This document shows, piece by piece, positions 4,253 to 48,946 of a DNA stretch of 64,000 nt. The stretch is taken from contig JBGPQV010000004.1 of the NCBI GenBank assembly GCA_041489255.1, positions 32,001 to 96,000 on the forward strand, in the 5' to 3' direction. The notes below the pieces were generated by a model. That model ran no database searches. It worked only from the letters and a program-made list of their open reading frames with translations, and had not been told where the DNA came from. Numbering within the stretch: position 1 is the stretch's first letter; the number at the start of each line of letters is the position of its first letter. Position numbers and translations under genes: made by a program. This DNA is from Thermoplasmata archaeon. Its GTDB lineage: Archaea > Thermoplasmatota > Thermoplasmata > RBG-16-68-12 > JAFNFQ01.

Positions 4253-4498
4253 GATTGGTCATTCTCCATGGTCATTCGCGGGCAAGTCGTCCACAACCAT
4301 GCGTATGGCGGCAGATAGTGGATTCACAGGAGCGACGAAACCTCGCTAGAGAATCGCCTCATAGACCTGTGATCTTGCACCATCGAAAGTGGAATTGAGA
4401 CTCGGACGACCGTATGTGAGATTCAAACAACTGTGCGGATTCTGCGACCAGCCGACCGACAACCTGTATCGAGGCATCATACTGTTCCTCAAGCGTTG

Positions 4499-29223: not shown

Positions 29224-32200
29224 CTACGTTCCCGGGACGTACCACGTGACAGCCGACGAGAGCAGGATCCAGTACGCCTGGCCAGCCTGCATGCACGTCG
29301 TCGACCATTCCGACTGCGCTAACCTCTGGAGGTAGTAGGGTCCCGCTGACGAATCATAGGTCTCGACCGCGTGCACGCTGCCGCCGGCAGCCGCAGCGAA
29401 GTCCCCAAGGGTGTAGTTGGTCCTGAATGACGGGAAGCCGATGAGGTTCCATCCGGCGGGGAGGGTCATCGTGGTGAGGTCTGGGACCAGACCCGCAACA
29501 GTCATCGTACCCGGCGCGGTGAGTTTGACCCAGTAGCCCGACTTGACATCCATCGCGCTGATGTCGTTGATTGCTCTTCCCGGCTTGTAGCTCCTCCACG
29601 GGTCGCCTCCGAGCGAATAGTAGGTCCTGACGGAGGTGAACCCGATTGTCTTCAGAACTTGATTGGGATGGTAGTTTGCCTGGTAGAGCGGGACGGAGAG
29701 GAGGTTGCTGTCGCCGTCGGTCAAAGTCCTGAAGAACTTCGCGGCAAGCTTCGTCGGCAGACTGTCGAACACGCTGTCGTTGGCCTGCACGTAGTAGAAG
29801 AAGAACTGCATGTTGCCATGGCCCGCGTTGATGTCCGTCCATGAATAGGCCGAGGCGCCGGTCGCAGTCACGTTGTAGACGATGAAGTAGGTGCCGCGCG
29901 CGGCGTCTGATTTCCAGACCTTGTAGATCGAGACGTCATTCGCACCCGCGCCATCGTCGAGCGATCTAGACCAGGTGAGGGTGACGTCCTTGTTGTTGGT
30001 GCCCGTCAGCTCGGCCTTCTGCATGACCGGCGGAGGCGGCGGCTTGTCCGGGGCCTGCGTGACGCATACATCGACCATCTCGCCCTGCCCCCACATGCTC
30101 TTGTTGTCCTCCCCGCGGATCCAGAAGCGCCTGCACTCACCCAGGCTCCACAGGGATGGCAGCCAGTTGGCGTAGAGCCAAGCGGTCTCCGTCGGGCTCC
30201 TGTCCACTCCGGTGAGGTTCATGGACCACGCGTTCGACCAGTCGAGGGTCGACGGGTCAGTCACTGTCAGGTCGGTCATCAGGAGCTGTGCCGCGATGAT
30301 GTTGTTGTATCCCGTGTTGATGTCGCTGATGTCCGCCTTTATCTTGAACGTGGGCGAGGGGAATGTCCTGTTGACGGGGTTAGGTAGCGTCGCAAGGTTG
30401 AGCGCCGAAGGCCCGAGGTTGTCAGGCGTGGTGTCCCAGCCCGCGCAGTAGATTGCGAGATACACGTCGTAGTTGACCTCGCCGCTCGGCGCGATGTTCT
30501 CGTGCCAGACCTCGTAGACGCAGCTGCTCACCGGCGTGGTCAACGTATCGGACATCTGATGCCCCTTCGCGAACGCGTCGGCGGAGACAAGCGTCCTGTT
30601 CGGGGCTGTCGCGAACCCGTCCCTGGACGACCAGGTCCACATGTTCGGGACTCCGTAGGGGTTGCCGAGCTCCATGTACGGTATCCACACTATTCCGTCG
30701 TCGGTGTAGACGATGTTGAGCACCGGCCGCCTGTTGTAGTTCGCATCCGACACCGCCACGCCGAAAGGTCCCCTGGGCGACGCGAAGCTTGGGCTCAAGC
30801 CCGGCGATGGCGCGGCTAAAGGAGCCGGGTACACCAGACCGGAACCGTAGTTGCCCTCCGCGTACAACGCGAAGAGCTGCTTGTCCAGCCTGCCCTTGTC
30901 GTTGGTGGCCGCAACATAGACCCTGTTCCCTCCCTCTGGCGTGGACACCACGGCCGGATACTGGATGTTGTTCAAAGTGCCGTCGTCCCAGATGTTGATC
31001 GGCGCCAGCCAGCCCGTGTCCCAAGTCGGCCCGTCCCACAGAGACAGGGCGAGTTTCCTGCCGGCGCTACCGGTGGCAGTCCTCCAGTAGAAGAAGACCC
31101 AGAGCACGTCGTTCTGATCCACCCCGCCGTTCGGGAAGAAGTAGAAGTTGGTGGAGGACGTCGGGGGAGCAATCTTCTTGCACTGCCCGGCTACGCAATC
31201 GCTCCAGGTGTCACCGCCATCGAAAGAGAAGGTGGCATGGACCTGCACGGCGCTTATCTGCGGAGCATCGTAGCTCGTCGAGTCCAGATGTTCCCAGATC
31301 CAAGCCAGCGTGCCGTTCGGGCCGCCAGCATGGCGGAAGATCGGGAAGCTGACCCTGCCGCTGTTGCAGACATTGCTACCGTAGTTCTTCTCCATGGTTC
31401 TGATATTCCAGGTATCGTACGGCGAGTCTGAGAACGCCACGCGGCCCCACGGTACCTTGTTGTCGTCGGGCTCGAGCGGATCTTTCCCAGTCCAGGTAAG
31501 TATGACCCTCCCCGTGAACAGACCCCAATCGATGTACTGGAACCTGAGGTCATTGGGGTAGTCGTTCCAATCGCTCACGACCATGTGCGTCCACGGTCCA
31601 GCGAGTTGATGGTTGACTGTGAGCGTGTTGTGCGCCACCCAGACATTGGTTCCGTTGTGCGAAAGGTCGAGCGGGTTGAGCGGCGTGGTCTTCCTATATG
31701 CGATGAAGACGTGGTAGGTGCCGCTCAGGTTGAACGTCACCACCGACGGGTCCAGTTCATCGACGCTCTCGGTCGTCACCTTCCACCAGTACGGAAGGCG
31801 TTGCGCCAGCACCTCGACTTGCACGCACAGCGTGTCGGAGGCCTTCGGCACGTTCGGGTCGTTGCCCGACTCCGCCTTGATGCAGAAAGAATACATGCCC
31901 GGTGTTGTCCCGGGCGGCGCGTACATTATCGCCATGTTGTCCATCATCTGACCTGTGGTGAAGGTGTTGACCATCCAGTCCATCGTGACCCCTATGGTCG
32001 AGGAGCCGTGAGATATGGAGATGATGTCTGTCTCCGTCCCGTAGTTCCTCACACTGAAGGGGAGGCTCGCAGCTCCGTCAGGGGAGACGCTCAAGACGGT
32101 TGGGTACCTCGTCTCCATGTGGACCTGGTAGGTCTTCTTGGGGCCCACATCCGCCGAGAATATCACGGCAAACTTGGCGGTGGATGGCACCTGTGTTCCG

Positions 32201-34951: not shown

Positions 34952-37900
34952 TTGACCGGGAGGAGGCAGTCTCTCTGTGTATTGCTGCTGCTAGTCATGC
35001 TGTCGTCTGCCATGTATGTCTCGACTCCAGGGCAGAAACCGAACCAGCCCGATCAAGCGGGCACCGCGCCCGCGCTATCGAGCGAAGGAACGGGCACGAA
35101 CCCTGAGAAGCAGGTCGACATGGGCGCATCCGTATCATCGATACCGATGGCGACTTACCCGAGCTCGAGTGTCGGATGGCCGACCGCAAGTTCGGAGCCG
35201 ACTCCGGATGTAAACAGCCCGACGATCTTCGACTATCATCACATAGCCGAGGCTCAAGCCCTTGGGACGCCGGCGTACACGGGCTCCGATGTCCGGGTTT
35301 CGGTACTCGACTACGGTCTGGATATGGGCCAGCCAGACCTGAACGGCTCTCAATTCGTACAGCCATCTGGCCCTTATGCCGGGTGGCCCGTGGCCTTTGA
35401 CCCGATGTCGATGGGCAAATGGCTCAGGGACGAGAAGTACGAGGGGACCTGGTACGCGAACACGACTCGGGAAGGTCAGCCACCTTTCGAGGTGACCCAC
35501 TACATCCTCGTGGATGGTCGAAGAGACTTCGGAGATTCCGAGTTGCTGAAGGAGGATCCCTTGGGAACCAGCACATCTTCCACGGATGGACCAAAGATGG
35601 ACTATGACCTTACGCAACTCTATGTGACTCACGATGAGAAATTCTGGTACTTCGGATGGCCTGTCACGCAATACCTGAACACGAACCTTACCTATGGCCT
35701 TATGATAGATGTGAATAACGAGACAGGGGGAACAACGTCAGTCCCTGAAGGGAAGCTCGTAAGCACGAACACGACTCATTCGGGGAGCCCCCCCACAGAT
35801 CTAGCGGTCAACGATGTCACCGTGAGCCCTGACGGCACTCTGATAGCGACAACCTCGAGCGATAAACATGTCAAGGTCTGGAGACTCGATGGCAGCCGAT
35901 TGTACGACTTCGCTCCAGATCCCTTGAATCCAAGCAGTCACACTTCGAATCCTTACAGTCTCGCTTGGTCCCCAGACAGCAGGTTCCTGGCCAGCAGAGA
36001 CAAGAGCAAGCTCATAGTATGGGACGTTGTCAGCGGGCGTCAGGCATGGTGGACCACCATCAAGGACTCGACAATGGATATCACGCCTCCTGACGATCGC
36101 TTTTCATCATCGATTGCGTTCTCGCCCAATGGGCAGTGGATTGCGGTTGGTGCCGACTCCAGGGTGAGCGTCTTCAATGCTGCAACAGGCAGGTACGTCG
36201 GCAACGTCTCCGCCGCGACGGGTGGCATCATCAGGAGCGTGGCATTCAATCCGACAAACCCAACGCCGCCCCAGATTGCGATTGGGGCTGATATCTATGG
36301 GACGAGTTCCAATACCGTTCGAATTTACTCACTGGATGCGACGAACCTGCAGAACGTCAGAAATCCTCCAGTCGCCGTTGCTACCTGGAACAGCACGACA
36401 GCAGCCCCGGGCGCGCACACCGGTCAGATATTCAGCGTCGCATGGTCGCCTGATGGTCTGAGGATAGCATCCACAGCGAAGGATAACAGCGTCAGACTGT
36501 GGAACCCGCCTTCCACGTCACCTCTCAGGTATTCGACGCTTCATGGGAATTGGGTTTATGACGTCGCATGGGAACGGAGCGCTCCATACAGGTTCGCGAC
36601 TGTCTCGCGTTCTCCCACGTTGCCCAAAGCCCCGCTTAGGCTCTGGGGCTATAATGGCAGCTCGCTCGGATACTTCGAGCTCAACAAGTCGACTTATGCG
36701 GTCGACTGGACGAATAGCGGTGAACTGGTCACTGCGTCACTTGACCTATCCGCAAGGATTACAAGCACCTCTGGGAACCTTCAGAGAATCCTCGTTGCCA
36801 ACAAACCCGACTATGCGGTGATGATTGACGCAGGCATGAACTACAGCATGAAGGACCTGAAGTGGGAAAAAGTCGTCTACAACGGGACGTTCTATTCATG
36901 GAACGATACCACGTCGAGCTGGAGCCAGGGCAACGAAGTGACAAAACCGCCAATCAACGGCACTCAAGCATTCTTCGGAGTCGACGAGCTGTTCGTCGAA
37001 CTCGGAGTACCCACCGCCCTCTTGGGCAATCCCTCAGGCATTTCCGTCGAGATGTTCTCCGTGGCGAGAGACAAGAGTCATGCTCAGGACTCGGTGCCGA
37101 TCGACGGTACGGTTTTCGACGTGGACGGCAACGGGAAGTCCGATGGAGGGACCGCGGATCCATCACGTCCTGCCATTGACTTCACTCCTGTCGAGACACC
37201 GCTGAGTGCCTTCCAGTACGTTCCGGTCACATACTACAAGGTCAACACTACCGAAATCAACTCGGTGAGTAGGGATTACCATTTCGGGTATCACCCATCC
37301 CAGAAACTTGCTCAGCTATTCGGTTCTCTGGGCTTGCTCGTGGTAGATCCCGATCGGAACGGCACCTATGAGCGAGTCTATCTGGACATGGATAGGAACA
37401 CTTGTGAATCCAACCATGAATTCGATTCCCGGGATGTCTGGGTGGACAAGAGCCATCCCGTTGCGACATGCAACAAAGCGGGCACAGTCGATTCCACGCC
37501 CGATATCTCCGCAGGCATGATCTACTTTGTTTCAGACGGCGTCAATAATATCCCGTACTCCGAACGATTCAGGGAGCTGAATGGCATTACGAATCTCAAG
37601 AAACCGGGGAACGGCGAACTCGTTGCTTTCGCCGGCGAGTTCAGGATGGATCCCGACACGAACTACCCGCTGACTCATGGCACCGAAATCGCCTCGATAA
37701 TCGCTTCCAGAGGCCGGATCGATTCCGCTAGAATGAAAGGGATTGCGCCCGGAGTGAAACTCATACCCATCGTGAACGCCCTCGATGACATCATCTCCTC
37801 CTGGTACTTTGCAGTTGAGGGATACGACAAGTCGCCCGCAACCGGCGACGAGGCTCAGATAGTCCTCAATCCATTCGAGTATCCCAGAACGAAGGACGAC

Positions 37901-40900
37901 GGATACGACGTCTACTCGAGGACTGCGGACTACCTCTCGACCAGCTACGCACAGGGCCGGACAGTCTTCTTCGGTCCTGCCGGCGAGGAGGGCTTCGGCT
38001 ACGGATCGGTCGCATCACCGGCAGCGAGTCCAGGGATCATCACCGTCGGAAGAACCGTCGACGGCTCGATGACGGCGTTTCCGAATGGCGTTGAAGGCAC
38101 CAGCATTCACTACAACAACATCGCTTTCAGATCTTCACGTGGCCCGACTGTCTCGGGTTTTCCGAAACCTGACTTCGTGGCGATAGGCAATACCGCTTAT
38201 GACGAGCCCATAATATTCGGCTCTGACGGCACGGAAGCGTTGACCGATAGAGGTAACTCAGGATCCGAGATATCCGCGGCAGTTGCGGCGGGCGTGGCGG
38301 CCCTATTGATGGACGCCGCTGAGAGAATCGGCCGCAATCTGACGGCGAGCGACATCAGGAACTATTTGATGTCCGGCGCTGAGAATCTGGGTTATGACAT
38401 CCTGCTCCAGGGCGCAGGTTTCCTCAACGCGAGCAGATCCATGCAACTGCTGCTTGGCAGCAAGGATAAGGCGAGTGTGTTCGTTTCCCCGCCAAGTTGG
38501 GTCCCAGGGCTCTACAAGTCGTCCAAGCCGGACTCTTTCACGAAGCTCCTGTTCCCCGGCGATGGCGACCAGACCACCTTCACGGTTGAGAACAGAGACA
38601 CTAAGATTGTCAGTCTCAGCCTCAGCGGAGAGATGCTCACGAAGTGGGATGGATATGTCTTCACCAACAAGACCACGTTGAGGAACTTGAATGACATCTT
38701 CTTGTGGGTGAATAGGTCTGGCGTTTTTGTCGAAGACTTGAGCACTTTCCCGCCAGGCTTCACGATGATCGCGCCGGCGCTGCCCCAGCAAATTTGGGAC
38801 GACTCCGAGAACGTCCAAGTCACGGCGTACGGACCCTTCAACAATCTCATAGTGCCCTCCGGCGTCGATGGCTTCACGAATCTGTACTGCTACGATATGA
38901 CCCTCATGGATTGGACGATGGATCCGTTCGGTTACGGGCATCCCAGCCTGACTTGGGTGAACGAACTGAATACCATAGACATGTTGGATCACACCGCCAA
39001 TGTACTCGAGGCGCGAGTGCACAGGCCCGGTACTGAGCTGCACGACGCGCTGGTGATCCAGCTGAAACGCCACCTTGAGAACGATGCTTGCGGGAGATCG
39101 AACCTGGAGTGGACGTTCAACGTCGACTTCTTCCAAAGGGTGCCGTGGAGCATCCTGTCGCTGGACAAGACGAGCATCAGCCTGAACGCGGGAGGCAGCA
39201 CGACAGTCACCGCATCTATCCAGACGCCCGCAGACATGGCGATGGGATCCTATGAGGGTGCGGTCTATGTCTACGACTCGACGAACAAGCACGAGATTAC
39301 GATCCCGATTCTCGTGAACGTGGGGGCCCGCACTCCCAACTTCAAATTCGGAGGCAACCTACCTGCCACCGGTCTCAACGATGTCAGCAGGCTCTATGGC
39401 GGGAGAGACCTCACGCTATTAGGTTCGAACGTCAGGTATCCTTACACAGGTGATTGGCGGTACTTCTATGTCTGGCTACCCGACGACGGCATCAATGTGG
39501 CTGGGGCGAGCATCAAGATGGTCATCCAGCTCAACTGGACCGTCAAGCCGAGCGATATCGACATGGTCGCGCTCACGCCCGCCACGGCCGCAGATGTGGC
39601 ATCACAGTTCGCCTCCACGCGCTTCGGCCCGAAGTCCGTAAGGGAAGTGGTATCATCAGAGGCCGAATCGAGACCGAAATTCAAGACTCTCAGCAACAGC
39701 TCCCAGGACTATATCTCCTTCCAGCTGTCCGGCGGCCTGAACGTCATCGCACTCCATCAGATGATTCTCAACGGCGACAAACCCTACGAGATATTCAGCG
39801 GGAGCGGGATGTGGTGGCGCGTGCCAAGAGAGGTGCGGAAGGCGACGCAGAGTCTATCCGGCTTTGTCGGCGGCAATGCGATGCTGAGCGACACGCTGTT
39901 CGGCGGTCTCAGGGTTGACGCGGTCGGCCCCGCCATAGGCTCGAAGAACTCGTCGGAGCTGATCAAGCAGGACTGGCAGGAATGGATGAGTTCTCTGCCC
40001 TTCGGTTCCGCGCTGGCCAAGGGCAGTTACACGCTGTGCCTCCTTATCGAGAGCGTCATAATCCTAGACATAAAGCTGACAGGGCTATCCGACGTCGAAG
40101 ATCTTGACATGGGCCTTTTCAAGGACCCCAACGCCGACTGCAAGCTGGAAGAAGCCAATACGAACGGTCAGCCGTGCTCCGGCGTCAACTGCGTAGGAGG
40201 CGGGCCTCCATGGGCGATATCTGCTGGCTCCACCGCCACCGAGGAGATAAAATGGACGAGTCCGGACGATGGCCGCTATATTATCAAGATACTTGGCTAC
40301 ACCGTGCCTGGCGGTGCCGGGCATTTCGACCTCGAAGTGCAGCAGACTCTTGCGACTGGTTCCGGCTACATGATTCCGGAGGCGCCCCCGCCGGAGCAAT
40401 TGCTCATAGGCACGAAGCCAGTGCTGCCCCCGTTCAGTATCGTCTCCTATTCGATGACCTGGGACTTCAGTGGAAGCCAGAAGGATGGAAACTACAGTGG
40501 CGCTGTGCGCTTCGGGACAGCGACGGCAGGGGGAATCGTCGTGGTGCCTGCCATGATAGTCCTGGATCGTCAGGCGCCCGCGATATCGTCGTTCGTGGTG
40601 AAATCGCAGACCCTGCTCGTAAACACGACCGACCCGACGCTCACGAATGACCCGCGACCTACGCTCGTGGTCAGCCTGGCGGACAGGCAGATGGGGAGCC
40701 TGGCTAGGGACACGTTCAAGATGGTGCTCAACGACGTGGATATAACCGCACTCATGAGCGTGTCCGTGACACTGGAAACCAATCCCTACGTGACTCCCGC
40801 AGGACCCTATGGCCGCTGGCGCGGCGACATGAAGTTCAGCGCCATCAATCCGCTGGCGAACGGGATTCACACGCTCTACGTGGCTGCAGGCGACGAAGCC

Positions 40901-42370
40901 AGGAACTTCGTACACGCCAACTACACGTTCACAATCGACATGGAGTCGCCGCCTTTGGCCTTGGCGGGACTTCCGGTGGAGTACTTGCGTCAGAACACAG
41001 TGATGCTCCAAGGCAGCTCGGATCCCAATGCGTATGTCTTGATTGGCGGGACATGGCGTCAGCTCGACGCGACAGGCCAATTCTCCGTTCCTCTGACGCT
41101 TGAAGAGGGGAACAACGTCATCGACGTCACGGCGACACGCTGGTTCCAGGTGCAAAAGTCGGGCAGTATTCCCGCCAACACGGTCACTCTGCAGAAGAGG
41201 TACGTCTATGACATCACTCCACCGTCGATTCTTGGCGTGACCACCGATCCTTCTATTCTGCCGATAAACACGGAGACCTTGCGGCTATCCGGCCGATTGG
41301 CCGACAACATAGCACTAGACACTCCGCTGGCGAATTACTCAATGCTGAAGTTCACGATCAATGGCGCGCCGGTGAGCGTCTTCCCGGACGGCAGCTTCTC
41401 GGTGGTCGTTCCGACGTTGGAAGAACAGAACAGCTACGTGCTCTACGTGGAGGATCCAGCGGGCAACAATGTCACGAGCGCGCCCCTGATAATCACCAGA
41501 GACACCGTGGCGCCGGTCATAGAAGTCTCGGGGGTTCCTGAGCGCGTGGAGGCGGACAGGGTCACGGTGACCGTGACTTCCGAGTCAGGCTTGAGGGTAA
41601 CCGTGAATGGCTTCGACGCCCCGGAGGGTCCGACAGGCACTTACACCAAGTTGATTGGCCTGAGCGGAGGCTCGAACACGATAGTCATCACCGCGCAGGA
41701 CAGCGCGAAGAACACCGTCGAGCGCAGGGTCGCCGTGGAGTACGCCGCCCCTGCGGGCCTTGGGAGCCAGCTGTTCGGGCCGGCCGGAGGGGCCGGGTCG
41801 ATAGCATTCATCGCGATCCTGGTGATCATAGTCGTCATCATCGTCTTCCTGGTCATTCGCTGGATGCGCGGACGGGGCGGCGTGGAGGAAGAAGGTGAGG
41901 TCGGCGCGGTCGAAACGGAGGTTCCAGCCGAAGAACCGGTTGGAGCGCCCGAGGAGGAAGAGCTGGAGACCGAGGAGATCGCGAAGCCGTCGAAGCCTGC
42001 TGAGGGACCACCTGAAGAAGTAAAGGCTCCACCAGCCGCACCGCAGAAGCCATCGGAGGAAGCGACAAAGCCGGCTTCCACGCTCGTCGTGTTCCGCGTG
42101 ACGAGGGCGAAGCTTGCGCTCGATCAGGGCAAGATATCCCAGAAGGTGTACGAGCAGAACCTCGCCTCGATGGGCCTCACTGTCACGGATGCGGACAAGA
42201 CAATCAAGGAGGCTGAGAAAGCCGAACAGCTCCAGGCTAGAGCCTCGCCCGCCGAGAAGAAGGCTCCGACGAAGGAGGACAAGATCAAGGCGCTCCGCAA
42301 GGCTCTGGACGAAGGACGCATAACCCAGGAAGTGTACGAGGCGAACATCAAGAGAATCCAGCAGAGCTAG
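34952..42370 (+). CDS. Giant membrane-anchored S8-like protein with WD40 insertion, Ig-like repeats, TM and SHOCT-like tail; probably proteolytically inactive
   Basis: VLDYG, HGTEIAS, SSRGP...KPD, GAGFLN; WD40 repeats (SPDG..IA..S.D..V..W); TM IAFIAILVIIVVIIVFLVI; DQGKISQKVYE and DEGRITQEVYE; GTSMA replaced by GSEIS. Confidence 0.88.
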   Translation: MTGRRQSLCVLLLLVMLSSAMYVSTPGQKPNQPDQAGTAPALSSEGTGTNPEKQVDMGASVSSIPMATYPSSSVGWPTASSEPTPDVNSPTIFDYHHIAEAQALGTPAYTGSDVRVSVLDYGLDMGQPDLNGSQFVQPSGPYAGWPVAFDPMSMGKWLRDEKYEGTWYANTTREGQPPFEVTHYILVDGRRDFGDSELLKEDPLGTSTSSTDGPKMDYDLTQLYVTHDEKFWYFGWPVTQYLNTNLTYGLMIDVNNETGGTTSVPEGKLVSTNTTHSGSPPTDLAVNDVTVSPDGTLIATTSSDKHVKVWRLDGSRLYDFAPDPLNPSSHTSNPYSLAWSPDSRFLASRDKSKLIVWDVVSGRQAWWTTIKDSTMDITPPDDRFSSSIAFSPNGQWIAVGADSRVSVFNAATGRYVGNVSAATGGIIRSVAFNPTNPTPPQIAIGADIYGTSSNTVRIYSLDATNLQNVRNPPVAVATWNSTTAAPGAHTGQIFSVAWSPDGLRIASTAKDNSVRLWNPPSTSPLRYSTLHGNWVYDVAWERSAPYRFATVSRSPTLPKAPLRLWGYNGSSLGYFELNKSTYAVDWTNSGELVTASLDLSARITSTSGNLQRILVANKPDYAVMIDAGMNYSMKDLKWEKVVYNGTFYSWNDTTSSWSQGNEVTKPPINGTQAFFGVDELFVELGVPTALLGNPSGISVEMFSVARDKSHAQDSVPIDGTVFDVDGNGKSDGGTADPSRPAIDFTPVETPLSAFQYVPVTYYKVNTTEINSVSRDYHFGYHPSQKLAQLFGSLGLLVVDPDRNGTYERVYLDMDRNTCESNHEFDSRDVWVDKSHPVATCNKAGTVDSTPDISAGMIYFVSDGVNNIPYSERFRELNGITNLKKPGNGELVAFAGEFRMDPDTNYPLTHGTEIASIIASRGRIDSARMKGIAPGVKLIPIVNALDDIISSWYFAVEGYDKSPATGDEAQIVLNPFEYPRTKDDGYDVYSRTADYLSTSYAQGRTVFFGPAGEEGFGYGSVASPAASPGIITVGRTVDGSMTAFPNGVEGTSIHYNNIAFRSSRGPTVSGFPKPDFVAIGNTAYDEPIIFGSDGTEALTDRGNSGSEISAAVAAGVAALLMDAAERIGRNLTASDIRNYLMSGAENLGYDILLQGAGFLNASRSMQLLLGSKDKASVFVSPPSWVPGLYKSSKPDSFTKLLFPGDGDQTTFTVENRDTKIVSLSLSGEMLTKWDGYVFTNKTTLRNLNDIFLWVNRSGVFVEDLSTFPPGFTMIAPALPQQIWDDSENVQVTAYGPFNNLIVPSGVDGFTNLYCYDMTLMDWTMDPFGYGHPSLTWVNELNTIDMLDHTANVLEARVHRPGTELHDALVIQLKRHLENDACGRSNLEWTFNVDFFQRVPWSILSLDKTSISLNAGGSTTVTASIQTPADMAMGSYEGAVYVYDSTNKHEITIPILVNVGARTPNFKFGGNLPATGLNDVSRLYGGRDLTLLGSNVRYPYTGDWRYFYVWLPDDGINVAGASIKMVIQLNWTVKPSDIDMVALTPATAADVASQFASTRFGPKSVREVVSSEAESRPKFKTLSNSSQDYISFQLSGGLNVIALHQMILNGDKPYEIFSGSGMWWRVPREVRKATQSLSGFVGGNAMLSDTLFGGLRVDAVGPAIGSKNSSELIKQDWQEWMSSLPFGSALAKGSYTLCLLIESVIILDIKLTGLSDVEDLDMGLFKDPNADCKLEEANTNGQPCSGVNCVGGGPPWAISAGSTATEEIKWTSPDDGRYIIKILGYTVPGGAGHFDLEVQQTLATGSGYMIPEAPPPEQLLIGTKPVLPPFSIVSYSMTWDFSGSQKDGNYSGAVRFGTATAGGIVVVPAMIVLDRQAPAISSFVVKSQTLLVNTTDPTLTNDPRPTLVVSLADRQMGSLARDTFKMVLNDVDITALMSVSVTLETNPYVTPAGPYGRWRGDMKFSAINPLANGIHTLYVAAGDEARNFVHANYTFTIDMESPPLALAGLPVEYLRQNTVMLQGSSDPNAYVLIGGTWRQLDATGQFSVPLTLEEGNNVIDVTATRWFQVQKSGSIPANTVTLQKRYVYDITPPSILGVTTDPSILPINTETLRLSGRLADNIALDTPLANYSMLKFTINGAPVSVFPDGSFSVVVPTLEEQNSYVLYVEDPAGNNVTSAPLIITRDTVAPVIEVSGVPERVEADRVTVTVTSESGLRVTVNGFDAPEGPTGTYTKLIGLSGGSNTIVITAQDSAKNTVERRVAVEYAAPAGLGSQLFGPAGGAGSIAFIAILVIIVVIIVFLVIRWMRGRGGVEEEGEVGAVETEVPAEEPVGAPEEEELETEEIAKPSKPAEGPPEEVKAPPAAPQKPSEEATKPASTLVVFRVTRAKLALDQGKISQKVYEQNLASMGLTVTDADKTIKEAEKAEQLQARASPAEKKAPTKEDKIKALRKALDEGRITQEVYEANIKRIQQS

Positions 42371-43158: not shown

Positions 43159-43262
43159 ATACGGAAATTATCACTACGAATCCTCGCCTTGAAACCCGGA
43201 CCGCCTCCTGATATTGGCAAAGGGCTTTAGAGGGAATCGTGATACGTCGCCAGGTTGTCACG

Positions 43263-44531
43263 ATGAAGACATCGGAAATATCCGGCTTCTACAAGCTGAG
43301 CCCCGCGGAGCGCCTCGCACTCGTCAGGGAGTATGCCGCCTTGTCCGAAGATGAGGCCAAGGCCCTGTCTGCCGAGGGTTCTCTCAAGCTCGCCGACGCG
43401 AACAGGATGATCGAGAATGTTGTGGGGACGATGCCGGTGCCGCTGGGCATGGCGGTGAACTTCAAAGTAAACGACCGCGACTATCTAGTGCCTATGGCGC
43501 TCGAGGAGCCGAGCGTCGTCGCGGCGGCATCCAACGCCGCGAAGATGGCCAGGGCGAAGGGGGGTTTCACCGCGACGACAACAGGCCCGGTCATGATCGG
43601 GCAGATACAGGTCACTCACGTGCCGGACCCGGACGGAGCCGCTCAAACGATCATGCGGAACAAGGACAAGATACTCAAGATGTGCAACGCCAAGGATCCC
43701 GTGCTCGTCAAGTTCGGCGGGGGCGCGAAGGATGTGGAGTGCAGGATCGTCCAGAGCATGAGAGGACCGATGCTCATCGTGCACCTGCTCGTCGACTGCA
43801 GGGATGCGATGGGCGCGAACGCGGTCAATACGATGGCGGAAGCCGTGGCGCCATACCTGGAGGAGCTTAGCGGCGGGAGAGTCTTTCTCAGGATAATCTC
43901 GAATCTCGCAGTCAAGAGACTCGCCCGATCGACCGCAATCTTCGATAAGGAATCCATCGGCGGACCTGATGTGGTCGAGGGAATCCTGGAGGCATACGCA
44001 TTCGCGGAAGCTGACCCTTACAGATGCGCGACTCACAACAAGGGCGTGATGAACGGGATTGACGCGGTGGTGCTAGCCACGGGCAACGACTTCAGGGCGG
44101 TCGAGGCTGGCGCGCACGCATACGCGGCGATGGGCGGGAAATATCACTCGCTGACCACCTGGGAGAAGAATGCCGACGGCGACCTCGTCGGTTCAATCGA
44201 GCTTCCCTTGGCAGTTGGCCTCATCGGCGGAGCGACCGCGTCTCACCCCGTCGCGAAAGCAAATGTGCGGATCCTTGGCGTGAAGACTGCGCAGGAACTC
44301 GCGGAGGTCATGGCGTCTGTCGGTCTGGCGCAGAACTTCGCCGCACTCAGGGCGCTCACCACGGAAGGAATCCAGCGGGGACATATGTCACTCCACGCGA
44401 GGAACATCGCGATTGCGGCTGGCGCCATTGACGATGAAATCGACCGGGTCGCCGCGCTGATGGCCTCCGAGAAAAGGGTCCGGATGGACAGAGCGAAAGA
44501 GATTTTGGACCAAATGCGAAAGGGCAAGTGA
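43263..44531 (+). CDS. mvaA: Hydroxymethylglutaryl-CoA reductase, class II
   Basis: MIENVVG, EEPSVVAA, DAMGAN, THNKG.MNG, EGIQRGHM.LH. Confidence 0.95.
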   Translation: MKTSEISGFYKLSPAERLALVREYAALSEDEAKALSAEGSLKLADANRMIENVVGTMPVPLGMAVNFKVNDRDYLVPMALEEPSVVAAASNAAKMARAKGGFTATTTGPVMIGQIQVTHVPDPDGAAQTIMRNKDKILKMCNAKDPVLVKFGGGAKDVECRIVQSMRGPMLIVHLLVDCRDAMGANAVNTMAEAVAPYLEELSGGRVFLRIISNLAVKRLARSTAIFDKESIGGPDVVEGILEAYAFAEADPYRCATHNKGVMNGIDAVVLATGNDFRAVEAGAHAYAAMGGKYHSLTTWEKNADGDLVGSIELPLAVGLIGGATASHPVAKANVRILGVKTAQELAEVMASVGLAQNFAALRALTTEGIQRGHMSLHARNIAIAAGAIDDEIDRVAALMASEKRVRMDRAKEILDQMRKGK

Positions 44532-44591: not shown

Positions 44592-44687
44592 ATAAATTCG
44601 CCATAATGGTTGATATGGGGTCTGGGCCGCTCTCGTGGCGGGAATCTCCAAATCCTAGAATCTACATCCACATGCAGGAGCGCTGGA

Positions 44688-45227
44688 ATGCGTAGTCAGT
44701 ACGATGATGGGCAGCGATTCCAATACTCCATTCCTTCAGTGCAGACGCAGTACCAGACCGACTACACTCCGCCGATCTCCAGACCGACGGCAGGGTTGGT
44801 TCTCTCCGTCCTTGGCGGCGTCTTCGTTATCTTCGGAGGCTTGGCACTCCTTCTGGTTCAGGGCACATTCGGCTACTATCTATCCGGGATTGCCGCCGAG
44901 GCGATATGCGCCCCGATAGGAGTCATCATGATACTCGGAGCTATCGATGCATATTCACGTCCCCAGAGAAAGGTGGCCTGGGGCACGACGATAATCATCC
45001 TATCGCTCGTGAGCTGGGCATTCGCGCAGGGCGGCATGATATTCGGCTCCATACTCGGCTTGGCGGGAGGCATTCTCATCGTCGCGCATAAGACGTCGAT
45101 GCTTCCAGCACCGCCGCAAGTGATCATTCGCGAAAGGGATGTGGTCAAGATCGCGTGCCGCAACTGCGGTGCGATTGTGGACTTCGAGATGATGACTTGT
45201 CCGTATTGCGGGCGCTCACCAAGGTGA
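44688..45227 (+). CDS. Membrane protein with C-terminal zinc ribbon
   Basis: Four TMs then CRNC...CPYC. Confidence 0.75.
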   Translation: MRSQYDDGQRFQYSIPSVQTQYQTDYTPPISRPTAGLVLSVLGGVFVIFGGLALLLVQGTFGYYLSGIAAEAICAPIGVIMILGAIDAYSRPQRKVAWGTTIIILSLVSWAFAQGGMIFGSILGLAGGILIVAHKTSMLPAPPQVIIRERDVVKIACRNCGAIVDFEMMTCPYCGRSPR

Positions 45228-45477: not shown

Positions 45478-46344
45478 TTGACAGCGGTCGCGCTCTACAC
45501 CAGAGTTTCTACTGAGGATCAGGCCAAGGAGGGCTTCTCCCTCGATGCGCAGCAAGACAGGCTGCTGGCCTACTGCAAAGCCCGAGGCTGGGATGTTGCC
45601 GACAAGTACGTCGATGACGGCCATTCGGGCAGGAGCGTGAAGCGGCCGGCGTACCAGAGGATGATGGCGGAGAAGGACAGGTGGGACGCCCTCCTCGTGA
45701 TCAAGATGGACCGCATACACAGGAACGCGCGCAACTTCATGGAGATGATGGACAACCTCCAGAAGTGGGGCAAGGATTTCGTCTCTGCCACCGAGTCGCT
45801 CGACACCAGCACCGCAATGGGCCGGTTCGTGATGGACATCATCCAGAGGATCGCGCAGCTGGAGAGCGAACAGATTGGAGAGCGCGTCTACATGGGGATG
45901 AGCCAGAAAGCGAAGAAAGGAGAGGGGATACTCGGTTCACCGATCCCATACGGCTATCGTCTCGTCGATGGCAAGTTCTCTGTTGTCGAACCGGAGGCGG
46001 ACGTCGTACGCGAGATCTTCCGAAGGTACTGCGGCGGGGATTCCCTGGAGGACCTGCGGCGACACCTCAGGAGAAAAGGCATTCTCACTAGGATCGGGAA
46101 AGAATGGTCCAAGATGAGTCTGGCTCACATTCTGCATAATCCAATCTATGTCGGGAACCTTCGGTGGGACGGCATCATCAGGGAGGGCGATCACTCCGCC
46201 ATCGTAGACTCGGAGACATTCGACGAGGTTCAGAGAACCAGCTCGAGTAAACTGAGAAATCGTCCGCACGCGAGGGGACAAGGCGCGAACGGACTCGGTC
46301 ACGTAACGACAACCCGCCAAGCCGCGACACCACAGGAAGGATGA
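45478..46344 (+). CDS. Serine recombinase (resolvase catalytic domain + Recombinase DNA-binding domain)
   Basis: YTRVST (catalytic Ser), DDGHSG..RP, DRIHRN, PYGY, ILHNPIYVG, H.AIVD. Confidence 0.93.
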   Translation: MTAVALYTRVSTEDQAKEGFSLDAQQDRLLAYCKARGWDVADKYVDDGHSGRSVKRPAYQRMMAEKDRWDALLVIKMDRIHRNARNFMEMMDNLQKWGKDFVSATESLDTSTAMGRFVMDIIQRIAQLESEQIGERVYMGMSQKAKKGEGILGSPIPYGYRLVDGKFSVVEPEADVVREIFRRYCGGDSLEDLRRHLRRKGILTRIGKEWSKMSLAHILHNPIYVGNLRWDGIIREGDHSAIVDSETFDEVQRTSSSKLRNRPHARGQGANGLGHVTTTRQAATPQEG

Positions 46345-46348
46345 ACAC

Positions 46349-47131
46349 ATGGCTGACGCCGCACGCGAATCGGTGAGGAACTCGCTCCCGAGATGCGAAA
46401 GATGCTGGTCGACCGCCGATGTTCAGCTCTTCAGATTCATGGCGACCGGGGAGATGACCAGGAACGACGACGAAACCGGCATCCCCCTCTGCAATGAATG
46501 TAGAAAGAAGGCGCCTCGAGATCCATTGGTCTTCAAAGAGATATTCTTGCGTTTCGGCTCACCGAAAGAACTGCTGTCCGCGTACTCCGCGCATTCAGAG
46601 GAGGAAGCCATCGGGAAGCTCTGCGCCGAGAAGCGCTTGGACTATGCGAACATGATGGCGCGGTTGAGTGGCTCCGCCGCAGCTGCGCGGATCGGGGCCG
46701 AGCTTGCGGGGGAGAAGACCGGCGGCAAGATGGCCCACCTCATGGGGCCGTTCGGATACCACTACGACGATTCCGGCTTGGCGGTGAACGAGACGGAGGC
46801 GAAGGTCGTCCTCGAGATCTTCAACTTGTACATGAACGGGCTCGGCATCGCAAAGATCTGTCGAGAGCTGAACAGGCGGGGTCACCGGACGAGGACGGGG
46901 AAGGCGTGGGCGAGTCAGACGGTCGCGAACATTCTGAGCAACCCAATCTATTGCGGGTTCATGCGAGTCAACGGCGACCTCAAGGCCGGGAAGCATAGGC
47001 ACCTGGTCCAGGTCGGCGTCTTCAACCGAGTACAGGAGGAAATGCAGCGCCGCATAAGGCGGCCGGACCAAAAGAGCGATAACTGCCTGACTTTGCCGCA
47101 AAAAGAGGCGCAACTAGGGGAATCTCAGTAA
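46349..47131 (+). CDS. HNH-like Zn finger + Recombinase domain protein lacking the serine catalytic domain
   Basis: CERC...LCNEC at the N-terminus; PFGY, EAKVVLEIF.LY, LNRRG.RTR.G..W, ILSNPIYCG; no RVS motif. Confidence 0.85.
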   Translation: MADAARESVRNSLPRCERCWSTADVQLFRFMATGEMTRNDDETGIPLCNECRKKAPRDPLVFKEIFLRFGSPKELLSAYSAHSEEEAIGKLCAEKRLDYANMMARLSGSAAAARIGAELAGEKTGGKMAHLMGPFGYHYDDSGLAVNETEAKVVLEIFNLYMNGLGIAKICRELNRRGHRTRTGKAWASQTVANILSNPIYCGFMRVNGDLKAGKHRHLVQVGVFNRVQEEMQRRIRRPDQKSDNCLTLPQKEAQLGESQ

Positions 47132-47153
47132 AACACGGTTCACCGTGTTTTAC
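47128..47153. repeat. Perfect 12-2-12 palindrome (candidate serine-recombinase site or terminator)
   Basis: gtaaaacacggt-tc-accgtgttttac. Confidence 0.85.
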
Positions 47154-47182
47154 GGACAAGGGGGAAAATGGGCTTGACAAAA

Positions 47183-47293
47183 CATAGTGACCATAGCACT
47201 ATGGAAGGCGATACGCCTATTGGTGCTATAGAAAGGTTTAATGCTAAGCATACTATATAGCACAATAGAATTATGGTAAAGCATAAAACTATG
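47183..47293 (+). promoter_or_regulatory. Promoter of the RHH gene embedded in CATAG/ATAGCAC repeats
   Basis: catagtg-N7-cactatg; gtgctata (47223) and tatagcac (47256) flank BRE/TATA-like gaaaggtttaat. Confidence 0.55.
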
Positions 47294-47304
47294 GGAGATG
47301 GACA

Positions 47305-47451
47305 ATGCCCGCTCGGAAAGTTTCGGTGACGACGATACAAGTATCCGCCGCGACGAGGGACCGACTGTACAAGCTCAAGTTCCGGAAGACCTATGATGAC
47401 TTCCTGCAGCAGTTGTGCGATCTCTACGAGCAAGCACAGGGCGAAAAGTGA
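47305..47451 (+). CDS. 48-aa ribbon-helix-helix DNA-binding protein (missing from the ORF track)
   Basis: MPARKVSVTTIQVSAATRDRLYKLKFRKTYDDFLQQLCDLYEQAQGEK; TTIQVS..TRDRL..LK..TYDD pattern of archaeal RHH proteins; ggaga RBS. Confidence 0.8.
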   Translation: MPARKVSVTTIQVSAATRDRLYKLKFRKTYDDFLQQLCDLYEQAQGEK

Positions 47452-47569
47452 GATTCGCGGTCTTTGATTATAATATTCCATCATTATAGCAACAAGCTAA
47501 ACTAATGGCGTATAAGCGTAAACAAGGCGTTTAGAACCCTTTTTGACCGCACATGCGTTGGTGGTTGCG

Positions 47570-48946
47570 ATGCAGAGTTGGGTTGAGAAGTATCGCCCGC
47601 AGACGCTCTCGGACGTGGCGGGGAATGCCGCCGCGCTGAGCGAGCTGAGGTTGTGGGCCGAGTCTTGGGACAAAGGCAAGCCTCAGAAGAACGCTGTGAT
47701 CCTGGCGGGCAAGGCGGGGACGGGCAAGACGAGCGCAGCCCTCGCATTGGCTCAGGATATGCACTGGCAGGTCATTGAGATGAACGCGTCTGATGCCAGG
47801 AACGCCGATGCGGTGCGCAGGATTGCCACACGCGGTGCGAGATTCGAGACGTTCCTCTCGGACGGCAGCTACGTCCGCGCGAGCGAGGGCGGGAGGAAGC
47901 TGATAGTCCTCGACGAGGCGGACAACCTCTTCGGCACCGAAGACAGGGGAGGGATAGGGGCAATCGTGGAGACAATAGAGAAGAGCGGTCATCCGATCGT
48001 GCTCATCGTCAACGACCTCTACGAGCTCACTCGGAGATCCTCGTCCCTGAAACGCCTTTGCAAGACCATCAAGTTCCAGCGCATCCACGCAGCGACCGTG
48101 AAATCGGTCCTGAAGAAGGTCTGCAAGGCCGAGGGAGTCACGGTGTCCGAGGACATGCTGGAACATATGGCGACAAAATCGCAGGGAGATCTGAGGTCAG
48201 CGGTCAACGACCTGCAACTGGTCAGCGCAGGCAAGACCGATGTGGGGATCGAAGATGCCTCGGCGATAGGGTCGAGGGACACCGAAGGCAACGTCTATGA
48301 TGCGCTCCTCGAGATCTTCAGGTCGGGCAGTGTGGAGAAGGCGAGGAAGAGCACGACGAATCTCGATGAGTCGCCGGAAACCTTGATCCTTTGGATAGAC
48401 GAGAACATGCCGGTCGAATACAGGAGGCCAGACGACCTCTCGCGGGGCTACTCGGCTCTCTCGAAATCCGATGTGTACTTGGGGCGAGTGAGGCGCCGTC
48501 AGAACTACGGCCTCTGGTCATACGCCAAAGACATGATGACCGGTGGTGTGGCTGCCGCGCGGCAGGGCTCCTATGCCGGAGGTGTGTACAGATTCCCTAC
48601 GTGGCTCATGAAGATGTCTCGTTCGAGCAGCTTGCGGAAGACGATCGACTCTCTGGCGGGGAAGCTCGGATCCTGCATGCACACTTCAAAGAGAGTGATA
48701 GTCAACGATGTCATCGGGCCGTTCCGCCAACTGTTCCGCAATGATAGCGAGCTGAGGTTGAACGCAGCCATCGAACTGAACCTCGATGCGAAGGAGATTG
48801 CGTTCTTGCTTGGAGAAGAAGAAGACTCACACCCGGTGAAGCATCTCATGGAGGCGGTTGGCAAGCTCAAGAGCGCAGAATCGGAGGGTTCGACGGGGTT
48901 CGAGAGGTTCGCAGGGAGCGAGAACCAAAGCGAGCGCGACGAGTGA
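47570..48946 (+). CDS. rfcL: Replication factor C large subunit
   Basis: WVEKYRP, G.GKTS, EMNASDAR, DEADN, GDLRSAVNDLQ, WIDEN. Confidence 0.95.
   Translation: MQSWVEKYRPQTLSDVAGNAAALSELRLWAESWDKGKPQKNAVILAGKAGTGKTSAALALAQDMHWQVIEMNASDARNADAVRRIATRGARFETFLSDGSYVRASEGGRKLIVLDEADNLFGTEDRGGIGAIVETIEKSGHPIVLIVNDLYELTRRSSSLKRLCKTIKFQRIHAATVKSVLKKVCKAEGVTVSEDMLEHMATKSQGDLRSAVNDLQLVSAGKTDVGIEDASAIGSRDTEGNVYDALLEIFRSGSVEKARKSTTNLDESPETLILWIDENMPVEYRRPDDLSRGYSALSKSDVYLGRVRRRQNYGLWSYAKDMMTGGVAAARQGSYAGGVYRFPTWLMKMSRSSSLRKTIDSLAGKLGSCMHTSKRVIVNDVIGPFRQLFRNDSELRLNAAIELNLDAKEIAFLLGEEEDSHPVKHLMEAVGKLKSAESEGSTGFERFAGSENQSERDE

Follow-up and report, generated by a model that had tools for sequence, protein, structure and literature searches.

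We analyzed a 64,000-nucleotide (nt) stretch of a Thermoplasmata archaeon (GTDB lineage RBG-16-68-12; JAFNFQ01), positions 32,001 to 96,000 of contig JBGPQV010000004.1 in assembly GCA_041489255.1, referred to below as the window. Between the genes for HMG-CoA reductase (HMGR) and the large subunit of replication factor C (rfcL), the window carries a compact recombinase module: a short serine recombinase gene (gene 1), a second gene (gene 2) that starts after a 4-nt gap, a 26-bp palindrome, an AT-rich stretch, and a small open reading frame (ORF) that resembles ribbon-helix-helix (RHH) regulators (Table 1). The initial annotation of this DNA, made from its letters alone, had offered two explanations, a domesticated recombination system or a minimal mobile element. 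Here, we compare the module with its relatives in a 301-genome sample of the class and in 61 genomes of the order; family (f), genus (g), and genome (G) labels are those of this sampling. The results suggest that the module may stand in for the XerA/dif system of chromosome dimer resolution.

Gene 1 has the makeup of a serine recombinase. Its product matches the Pfam families Resolvase (133.4 bits, residues 4 to 149) and Recombinase (69.1 bits, residues 173 to 255), with no match to a zinc-ribbon family of Pfam and a C terminus that ends 33 residues past the recombinase domain. Pfam thus agrees with the initial description of a 288-amino-acid (aa) protein with catalytic and Recombinase domains, devoid of the zinc ribbon and coiled coil of large serine integrases; orthologous ORFs taken from related loci are 268 to 320 aa long. 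R9, S11, D78, R79, R82, an MDRIHRN block, and a IIQRIAQLESEQ block are invariant in 23 sequences. A Resolvase-type catalytic domain with a nucleophilic Ser and conserved Arg and Asp places gene 1 in the serine recombinase superfamily. The closest solved relative is the catalytic domain of the TP901-1 integrase (131.9 bits), and Gin and gamma-delta resolvase score 49 to 73 bits over the catalytic part only. With 288 aa and a recombinase domain, gene 1 does not belong to the small resolvases and invertases, which have about 180 to 200 aa and a short helix-turn-helix.

Gene 2 has a recombinase DNA-binding domain (residues ∼128 to 240) and no catalytic serine domain, as had been recognized initially. 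Recombinase is its sole Pfam match (75.2 bits, residues 148 to 235). In an AlphaFold2 model of the protein (predicted local distance difference test score, 83.6), residues 128 to 239 resemble the SPbeta integrase (9dxd; Z 15.0, root mean square deviation 2.7 over 110 residues) and the A118 integrase (4kis; Z 14.0; Foldseek E 1.5e-6). The recombinase domain that marks large serine recombinases is therefore present in genes 1 and 2 by Pfam and in gene 2 also by the modeled structure. The place of the catalytic domain is taken by a degenerate HNH zinc finger (residues ∼14 to 55) with two cysteine pairs, C16-x2-C19 and C48-x2-C51; in an alignment of 18 orthologs, the invariant residues are C16, R18, C19, W20, L47, C48, C51, and P56.

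The origin of this head is visible in the gene 2 orthologs of G009 and G002, which score 40.6 and 34.0 bits against the Pfam HNH family (cut-off, 21.4); His-His, Asn, and His are retained in both, as are all four Cys. The alignment between the window protein and the N terminus of the G009 ortholog has no gaps (37% identity, E 2e-22); the window protein reads LFRF instead of EFHH, ET instead of DN, and ECR instead of HCH. These two results bear out the earlier reading of an HNH-like finger that lacks the catalytic His. The copies of the window, f4, f6, f7, and f9 have lost His and Asn and retained the zinc-binding Cys; the window protein thus does not have the beta-beta-alpha-metal motif with catalytic His and Asn/His that defines HNH endonucleases. 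Among other comparisons, a profile search of the PDB with the N terminus of window gene 2 returned chance-level matches only, and a VIA structure search with the whole model placed the T5 SciA endonuclease at Z 3.9, weak fold evidence for HNH. A profile of the gene 2 family matched 54 representatives at E ≤ 1e-30 among 1.84 billion; by our reading of the listed rows, about 20 to 25 of these are full length and the rest consist of the recombinase domain alone. Because full-length representatives are so few, the gene 2 architecture appears to be a small, lineage-specific family. We know of no described family in which an HNH head is fused to a recombinase DNA-binding domain, no dedicated search having been made. 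A complex prediction for genes 1 and 2 gave a score of 0.00 (mark, 0.32), which speaks neither for nor against binding.

The third element of the module is the palindrome at the end of gene 2. It is a perfect 12-2-12 palindrome whose arms pair fully and which contains the TAA stop of gene 2 (47129-47131), as initially described; TTTT follows the stem. The early concern that it might be unconserved proved unfounded. Through a combination of intergenic sequence reading and weight-matrix searches, we found homologous sites 3' of the last recombinase gene at 47 loci in 11 families (f1, f2, f3, f4, f6, f7, f9, f14, f26, f29, and f33). The core CGG[T/A]NN[A/T]CCG is exact in 35 of the 47 sites. The outer arms are lineage specific: at least 9 of 12 positions pair in 32 sites, and at most 7 of 12 pair in 14 sites that keep the core.

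The central dinucleotide shows an unusual constraint. Read in the orientation of the module, it is AG at 19 sites, CT at 16, TT at 5, AA at 3, TC at 2, and CA and TG at 1 each, and it is never palindromic (AT, TA, CG, or GC; 0/47). Full independence of the sites, which does not quite hold, would put the probability of this by chance at 0.75^47 = 1.3e-6. Serine recombinases do not read the center, but its asymmetry gives the site the polarity that they need; a hairpin loop is under no such constraint. The center also changes between near-identical strains. It is TC in the window and in runs X2 and X3, CT (with 47148 T>A) in runs X5 and X6, and AG (with the same 47148 T>A) in the congeneric G001, the compared sequences being at least ∼98% identical; AG is the CT step read in the other orientation. 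In G001, 3 of ∼10 differences in 476 aligned nt fall within the 26-bp site. To judge from these comparisons, the center may be a mutational hotspot, perhaps as a result of cutting or of template switching in the palindrome. Flips of the center would do no harm if each site recombined only with its own sister copy, but they would with a fixed second site.

The site is unique in its genome. In the window's own 2.74-Mb genome (96.5% complete, the only genome tested), every other 26-mer differs from the site at 8 or more of 24 positions, and of 262 occurrences of the core CGG[TA]NN[TA]CCG, only that of the module has at least 10 of 12 arm pairs. Neither the mismatch search nor the search for core and symmetry found a second site, for which the initial annotation had proposed to look. 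A leave-out weight matrix, trained on the other genomes, ranks the window site 5th in its genome because outer arms differ by lineage; the significance of the site therefore rests on position, core, and symmetry together. An intergenic match at 4393-4422 scores 21.6 bits, above the module's own site; its neighbors are an unknown 234-aa ORF and the gene of a 1692-aa PKD-repeat protein. We rejected it as a second site: about 1.7 such matches are expected by chance, and nothing related adjoins it. Contigs of four metagenomes showed no joint at the palindrome, a weak test; the six joints listed in these contigs have short sides of 21 to 32 nt with <95% likeness and probably come from other organisms. 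We consider the palindrome likely to be the site of the recombinase.

The module is not an isolated occurrence. A gene 2 query matched in 56 of the 61 genomes of the order: near-full-length gene 2 was, by our count, present in 47, and in 9 the recombinase domain matches fell on gene-1-like genes only. No match was found in the remaining five (G003, G005, G024, G031, and G044). When the window proteins were searched by tblastn against relatives' loci, the order HMGR–gene 1–gene 2–RHH–rfcL recurred. All 19 loci of f1 and f4 have genes 1 and 2, with RHH in 18, rfcL in 16, and HMGR in 14; the misses fall at locus or contig ends, and in four of the 19, gene 2 is followed by a further copy of gene 1. 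Among the 20 loci of f2, f3, f6, and f7, gene 1 is present in all, gene 2 in 16, RHH in 11, and rfcL in 16, and in most of them radical-SAM, membrane, and GTPase genes come next, as in the window. Gene 2 is absent in G008, G027, G013, and G014, which keep gene 1, the site, and RHH in the order HMGR–gene 1–RHH–rfcL. Outside the order, f9 has gene 1/gene 2/RHH, G255 (f33) has two full recombinases followed by RHH, rfcL, and a radical-SAM gene, and in G108, rfcL and the radical-SAM gene directly follow a recombinase of 38% identity. Tandem pairs of two full recombinases occur in other gene contexts in f12 and f31.

Gene 1 has evolved in step with its neighbor. Over 18 loci, pairwise identities of gene 1 and rfcL are correlated (Mantel r 0.80; 0/2000 permutations as high), and their mean identities are 59% and 57%. 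Gene-1-type recombinases (E ≤ 1e-70) are found in 82 of the 301 genomes of the class and are present throughout several families (f1 1/1, f2 5/5, f4 17/17, f7 7/7, f12 35/35, f26 2/2, and f29 4/4), in parts of others (f3 3/7, f6 2/3, and f9 3/5), and in two of the three genomes of three small families (G207 in f31 and G255 in f33). Each f12 genome has exactly two matches, and every pair compared lies in tandem. The same search found none in f10 (0/39), f14 (0/10), f15 (0/13), f16 (0/7), f17 (0/37), f20 (0/5), f21 (0/41), or f24 (0/33). The 77 related loci span Thermoplasmata, Methanomassiliicoccales, Methanomassiliicoccaceae, and Methanomassiliicoccus, so the clade that carries the module includes cultured methanogens.

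This pattern does not fit a mobile element. Phage-, plasmid-, or transposon-type cargo genes are missing from the locus, as had been noticed at the outset. Serine integrases ride on phages, integrative and conjugative elements, or cassettes and recombine attP with attB; here, we find no cargo, fixed synteny, codivergence with rfcL, and a single site, and these same features, with synteny kept across the order, speak against the minimal mobile element of the initial annotation. A decayed remnant of a known element, which that annotation gave as a refuting outcome, is improbable in view of intact catalytic residues, an rfcL-like pace, and presence in whole families (35/35, 17/17, 7/7, 5/5, and 4/4 genomes), which amounts to near universality within lineages. 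From these comparisons, the module is very probably a fixed chromosomal housekeeping unit. Other short serine recombinases in the same genome are probably mobile elements: a solitary gene 1 copy at C18:33080-33859 (73% identical) beside an N6/N4 DNA methylase gene and three-recombinase clusters at C25:26736-29662 and C28:14910-17866 (∼290 to 323, 364 to 368, and 395 to 411 aa; one with a TFIIS-like zinc ribbon). No palindrome of the module type accompanies these paralogs. All nine f7 loci that include rfcL (G007, G030, G038, G033, G026, G022, G036, G012, and G017) share a fixed inversion of this one gene next to the recombinase, rfcL pointing the other way from both the module and the radical-SAM gene; no inverted repeats flank rfcL in the window.

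The distribution of the module is largely complementary to that of XerA. We scored XerA with the model NF040815 (cut-off, 220 bits; the tallies include the unpublished genomes G149 and G246). XerA exceeds the cut-off in 122 of the 301 genomes of the class, namely, in 4 of the 82 with the recombinase and 118 of the 219 others. A survey of co-occurrence and rfcL linkage against XerA had been proposed initially; rfcL synteny is kept across the order and beyond it. Many of the remaining genomes devoid of the module fall just under the XerA cut-off (e.g., f10, at ∼1e-53 to 1e-56). The window's own genome has four Phage_integrase matches, the best of which lies elsewhere and reaches 110 of the 220 bits needed. 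Short XerA-like forms (ORFs of ∼190 to 200 aa covering XerA positions 89 to 263) are widespread in f21 and f15.

In one genus, a tyrosine recombinase occupies the very slot of the module. The module bearers of g3 are G019 and G014, with HMGR–gene 1–RHH–rfcL, and G009, in which HMGR–gene 1–gene 2 runs into the contig start. In G003, G024, and G031, which belong to the same genus and lack the module, the slot between HMGR and rfcL holds a Phage_integrase gene of 185 to 207 aa (133 to 139 bits to Pfam in all three; 173 to 178 bits to positions 85 to 263 of the XerA model in G003 and G024), with ∼400 nt of noncoding DNA before it that is conserved, in places to the same degree as the coding sequence. 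G005 (f5) has a 274-aa Phage_integrase gene directly after HMGR, with three genes before rfcL. G019 has, besides the module, a XerA-like gene (E 2.9e-51) 555 nt after a tRNA-Ser gene and near a contig end, which looks like an element integrase. XerA itself was not beside rfcL in 10 genomes checked in f20, f24, f21, and f15: the two genes are 24 kb to >1 Mb apart in five complete f20/f24 genomes and on separate contigs in five f21/f15 genomes.

The recombinase locus often lies far from a presumed origin marker. With the best-scoring Orc1/Cdc6 gene as the assumed origin marker and most genome sizes rounded, the recombinase locus is 131 to 180 degrees from the marker in 11 of 14 one-contig genomes, 10 of the 14 being from one family. 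The distances are 180 degrees in G305, ∼178 in G116, 173 in G285, ∼168 in G295, ∼163 in G240, 161 in G207, ∼154 in G275, 152 in G027 (180 from a second cdc6 gene), ∼149 in G183, ∼141 in G132, ∼131 in G235, and ∼108 in G124; the other two genomes are taken up below. According to a review, archaeal dif is 122 to 144 degrees from oriC in the genomes analyzed and 180 degrees in one (PMC5357621). In f12, a second, lower-scoring Orc1/Cdc6 gene lies 41 to 83 kb from the tandem pair in 5 of 10 genomes (G295, G275, G240, G132, and G235) and 139 to 239 kb away in the other 5. On contig C4, GC skew and gene-strand patterns around the module display no clear switch.

TABLE 1 Features of the recombinase locus in the window and of the corresponding slot in three relatives
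Feature	Position	Strand	Assignment and basis
HMG-CoA reductase	43239..44531	+	Upstream neighbor, left edge of the slot; label read off the translation, synteny by tblastn
DUF6114/zinc-ribbon membrane gene	44610-45227		Between HMG-CoA reductase and gene 1 in the window's genus; Pfam
Gene 1, short serine recombinase, 288 aa	45478..46344	+	Pfam; presumed catalytic subunit with Ser11 as putative nucleophile
Gene 2, 260 aa	46349..47131	+	Degenerate HNH zinc finger, helical linker, and recombinase DNA-binding domain; presumed accessory/regulatory DNA-binding subunit
26-bp perfect 12-2-12 palindrome, GTAAAACACGGT-TC-ACCGTGTTTTAC	47128..47153		Central dinucleotide at 47140-47141; proposed gene 1 binding and crossover (dif-like) site
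TTGACAA motif	47175..47181		3' of the palindrome in gene-2-bearing loci; by-eye reading of intergenic sequences, no statistics
AT-rich stretch with repeated CATAG-NN-CTATG-type motifs	47183..47294		Likely promoter/operator of the RHH-like gene
RHH-like protein, 48 aa	47305..47451	+	Presumed transcriptional regulator of the locus; DUF7557 below cut-off
rfcL, replication factor C large subunit	47543..48946	+	Pfam RFC1/5 lid, AAA, Rad17; downstream neighbor, context rather than mechanism
Slot tyrosine recombinase regions	L169:7576-8640, L170:2065-3131, L172:570-1645		G003, G024, G031; catalytic domain only

Between the palindrome and rfcL lie several elements that may regulate the module. A TTG(T)ACAA motif is found 3' of the palindrome in gene-2-bearing loci, and TTGTACAA in f7; it is possibly an accessory site or a promoter element. 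The AT-rich stretch has CATAG..CTATG-type motifs at 47183-47187, 47191-47204, 47223-47231, 47264-47276, and 47282-47294. In other families, motifs of this class stand at either end of the spacer that precedes RHH, and none were seen in nine inspected loci that run on past the site and have no RHH match. The repeats and the small gene reported initially are present; the RHH label is weakly supported, with DUF7557 matched at 22.2 bits (E 9.3e-5; Pfam cut-off, 25) and weak matches to the BfmA N terminus (NCBIfam, E 0.022) and MazE7 (PDB, E 0.054 over 15 residues). Ten residues of this protein (R18, D19, R20, L21, K25, F26, R27, T29, Y30, and D31) are invariant in 16 orthologs. It is matched in 47 of the 301 genomes of the class, 46 with a single match and G032 with a second, weak one; two of the 47 matches are themselves weak (E ∼8e-6), and f12 has none (0/35). 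In run X5, two contig variants with 3 and 5 differences cover 47160-47290, the AT-rich operator region, and contigs of several runs stop at 47159-47189, which suggests strain heterogeneity just 3' of the palindrome. Farther upstream, the window has a 2472-aa ORF (34952-42370), and G003 has a gene similar to the DUF6114/zinc-ribbon membrane gene on the other side of HMGR.

Among characterized systems, the closest functional parallel is Xer/dif (archaeal XerA/dif, XerS/difSL of streptococci and lactococci, and XerH/difH). Both have a housekeeping recombinase gene beside a single palindromic site, at one locus per genome that appears mostly distal to the origin, and the parallel extends to the complementary distribution of module and XerA and to the Xer-like gene in the same slot of sister genomes. 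According to the review, xerS adjoins difSL as a single module, some archaea have xerA/dif modules, and dif centers are mostly 6 to 8 bp, that of difSL being 11 bp (PMC5357621), unlike the 2-bp center of the 12-2-12 site of the module. The module further differs in its enzyme, a serine rather than a tyrosine recombinase, in its additional noncatalytic subunit and RHH-like gene, and in that its function is a prediction. Gene 1 is thus not a member of Xer/dif by descent; our proposal is that it works like one.

By homology, the module is closer to other recombinases. It shares catalytic and recombinase domains with the large serine integrases TP901-1 (131.9 bits), A118 (recombinase domain, 53 bits), Bxb1, PhiC31, and SPbeta SprA, but it has no zinc ribbon or coiled coil (ORFs of 268 to 320 aa), carries no cargo, and is inherited vertically with housekeeping neighbors. 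CcrA and CcrB of the staphylococcal cassette chromosome (SCC) are likewise encoded by tandem genes of the recombinase family and act together; they are the best NCBIfam matches of gene 2 (CcrA, 49.9 bits) and gene 1 (CcrB, 171 bits), and both genes are full recombinases in f12, f29, f31, and f33. These scores are, however, far below the equivalog cut-offs of 700 (CcrA) and 900 (CcrB), gene 2 of the window has no catalytic domain, and no mobile cassette is present. Like the small resolvases and invertases (gamma-delta/Tn3 res site I, Hin/hix, and Gin/gix), the module has a palindromic crossover site with a 2-bp center beside the gene, and the further motifs next to its site could act as accessory sites; hix and gix sites are 26 bp long (12-2-12). 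In contrast to these enzymes, its DNA-binding part is the larger recombinase domain rather than a small helix-turn-helix, and no second site was found in cis. Finally, the gene 2 heads of G009 and G002 resemble HNH endonucleases, scoring over the Pfam cut-off with H-H...N...H and four Cys, whereas the head of window gene 2 has lost these His and Asn residues.

Domain makeup, conservation, the site with its properties, the phyletic pattern, and the slot swap were all observed directly. From them, we propose that the module is a chromosome-dimer resolution system built on a serine recombinase, which in Methanomassiliicoccales and uncultured relatives of theirs within Thermoplasmata would take over the task of XerA/dif; we give this reading about an even chance of being correct. 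The domesticated branch of the initial annotation, which included dimer resolution, is supported because synteny, codivergence with rfcL, universality within families, a conserved single site, and complementarity to Xer with a slot swap all point to it; the mobile branch is not supported. A more ambitious version, which we hold tentatively and place slightly below even, is that a serine system replaced XerA/dif in the whole clade, gut methanogens included, and did so at the same locus in at least one genus, with a minimal enzyme, a 12-2-12 site whose asymmetric center is free to vary, and, in one branch, a subunit with a dead HNH head.

DNA binding, cleavage at the center, the role of gene 2, and the biological function are what we infer from the sequences, and they could fit together as follows. 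Dimers of gene 1 would bind the two 12-bp arms of the palindrome, and two sites, one in each half of a dimeric chromosome, would be joined in a tetramer. Ser11 would cut both strands around the central dinucleotide, the subunits would rotate by 180 degrees, and religation would complete a crossover that turns the chromosome dimer into monomers. The enzyme would not read the center, which would have to be asymmetric and identical in both partners; this would explain why the center drifts and flips and is never palindromic. Gene 2 would be a noncatalytic DNA-binding subunit that goes back to an ancestral tandem pair, in whose second gene an HNH head replaced the catalytic domain; it probably helps to build or control the synapse, and some lineages appear to do without it. 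Repression of the locus probably falls to the RHH-like protein, which would act at the CATAG..CTATG operators.

Several observations weigh against this proposal. In four genomes (G062, G105, G260, and G305), a recombinase pair coexists with XerA over the cut-off, and these XerA genes have no tRNA nearby that would hint at integrases of mobile elements. If the families that bear the recombinase are one clade, as is possible, only a few events may lie behind the complementarity; related genomes are, moreover, not independent samples. In principle, the slot might attract recombinase genes as a hotspot. In 2 of the 14 one-contig genomes, G087 and G114, the locus is near the origin marker (37 and 51 degrees). 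At four loci with tandem pairs, from f12 and f31, simple searches found no adjacent palindrome (0/4), the outer arms of the site covary as those of a hairpin also would, and no arrangement of accessory sites is known that would force resolution rather than inversion.

Alternative explanations share parts of this evidence. The module could be domesticated for another housekeeping role, with recombination not its selected activity, e.g., as a sequence-specific DNA binder or a roadblock complex, in the control of replication termination or decatenation, or in the repression of RHH–rfcL. Its conserved linkage to rfcL, the conservation of gene 2 despite lost nuclease residues, and the operator-like motifs beside the site would suit such a role, but gene 1 keeps its catalytic residues invariant over class-level divergence, and a protein that only binds DNA could do without them; both the never-palindromic center, which fits strand exchange, and the same-slot swap with a catalytic tyrosine recombinase point to recombination. 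We regard a role of this kind as unlikely, if worth serious consideration. It is improbable that the locus is a fossil integrative element, or a landing hotspot for integrases before rfcL, with the palindrome a leftover att core: absence of cargo, a single locus in 35/35, 17/17, and 7/7 genomes of whole families, an rfcL-like evolutionary pace, intact catalytic residues, and the lack of a second site argue against it, even if the mobile-looking paralogs on C18, C25, and C28, the occupation of the slot by serine or tyrosine recombinases in different genomes, and the closeness of phage and SCC integrases speak for it.

Two further alternatives concern the site itself. The palindrome might be a mere hairpin, the end of the gene 2 transcript or an RNA element, with the target of the recombinase elsewhere. 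The window copy, a perfect stem followed by TTTT, looks the part, and outer arms that differ by family yet remain complementary (at least 9 of 12 pairs in 32/47) and the 5th rank of the window site with the leave-out matrix are compatible with it. However, a 10-bp core is conserved in 11 families, a loop of 2 nt cannot be folded, most families have no T-run after the site, and the center is never palindromic. The 14 of 47 sites that have at most 7 of 12 arm pairs and keep the core also argue against a mere hairpin, to which we assign only a slim chance. Inversion, one of the functions initially considered, would have the module flip or remove the AT-rich spacer or rfcL as a switch of expression. 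ATAG-TT-CTAT and ATAG-AA-CTAT stand in opposite orientation at the ends of the spacer, and rfcL alone is inverted in 9/9 f7 loci that include it. Yet the spacers of relatives are collinear, minus-strand matches being limited to 11- to 12-nt motifs; neither an inverted spacer nor a partner site was found; the f4 motifs are only ∼10 nt apart; rfcL of the window is not enclosed by inverted repeats, and its genome has no second palindrome; the contigs of the four metagenomes had no joints at the site (a weak test); and site polarity flips between close relatives, which a two-site switch could not tolerate. We consider such a switch very improbable.

In the literature covered, known systems of chromosome dimer resolution use tyrosine recombinases (XerCD, XerS, XerH, and XerA), and Cortez et al. 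(2010; PMC2958812) did not settle what archaea lacking XerA use instead but supposed that they have recruited another tyrosine recombinase. A full-text literature search, evaluated at the level of listings and abstracts, returned no paper that links a serine recombinase to chromosome dimer resolution and none on XerA/dif in Methanomassiliicoccales. If the proposed dimer-resolution function is true, the module would, as far as this search shows, be the first serine-family chromosome-dimer resolvase in any domain of life. Genome engineering employs serine integrases, of which gene 1 is a naturally occurring, minimal relative that lacks the zinc-ribbon/coiled-coil control module, and gene 2 would illustrate how a second recombinase gene is converted into a noncatalytic helper. 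In a large XerA-poor clade, a serine recombinase behaves as a core gene and trades its slot with a Xer-like gene. The question of how XerA-less archaea resolve chromosome dimers would thereby become directly testable, with a defined enzyme and a defined 26-bp site.

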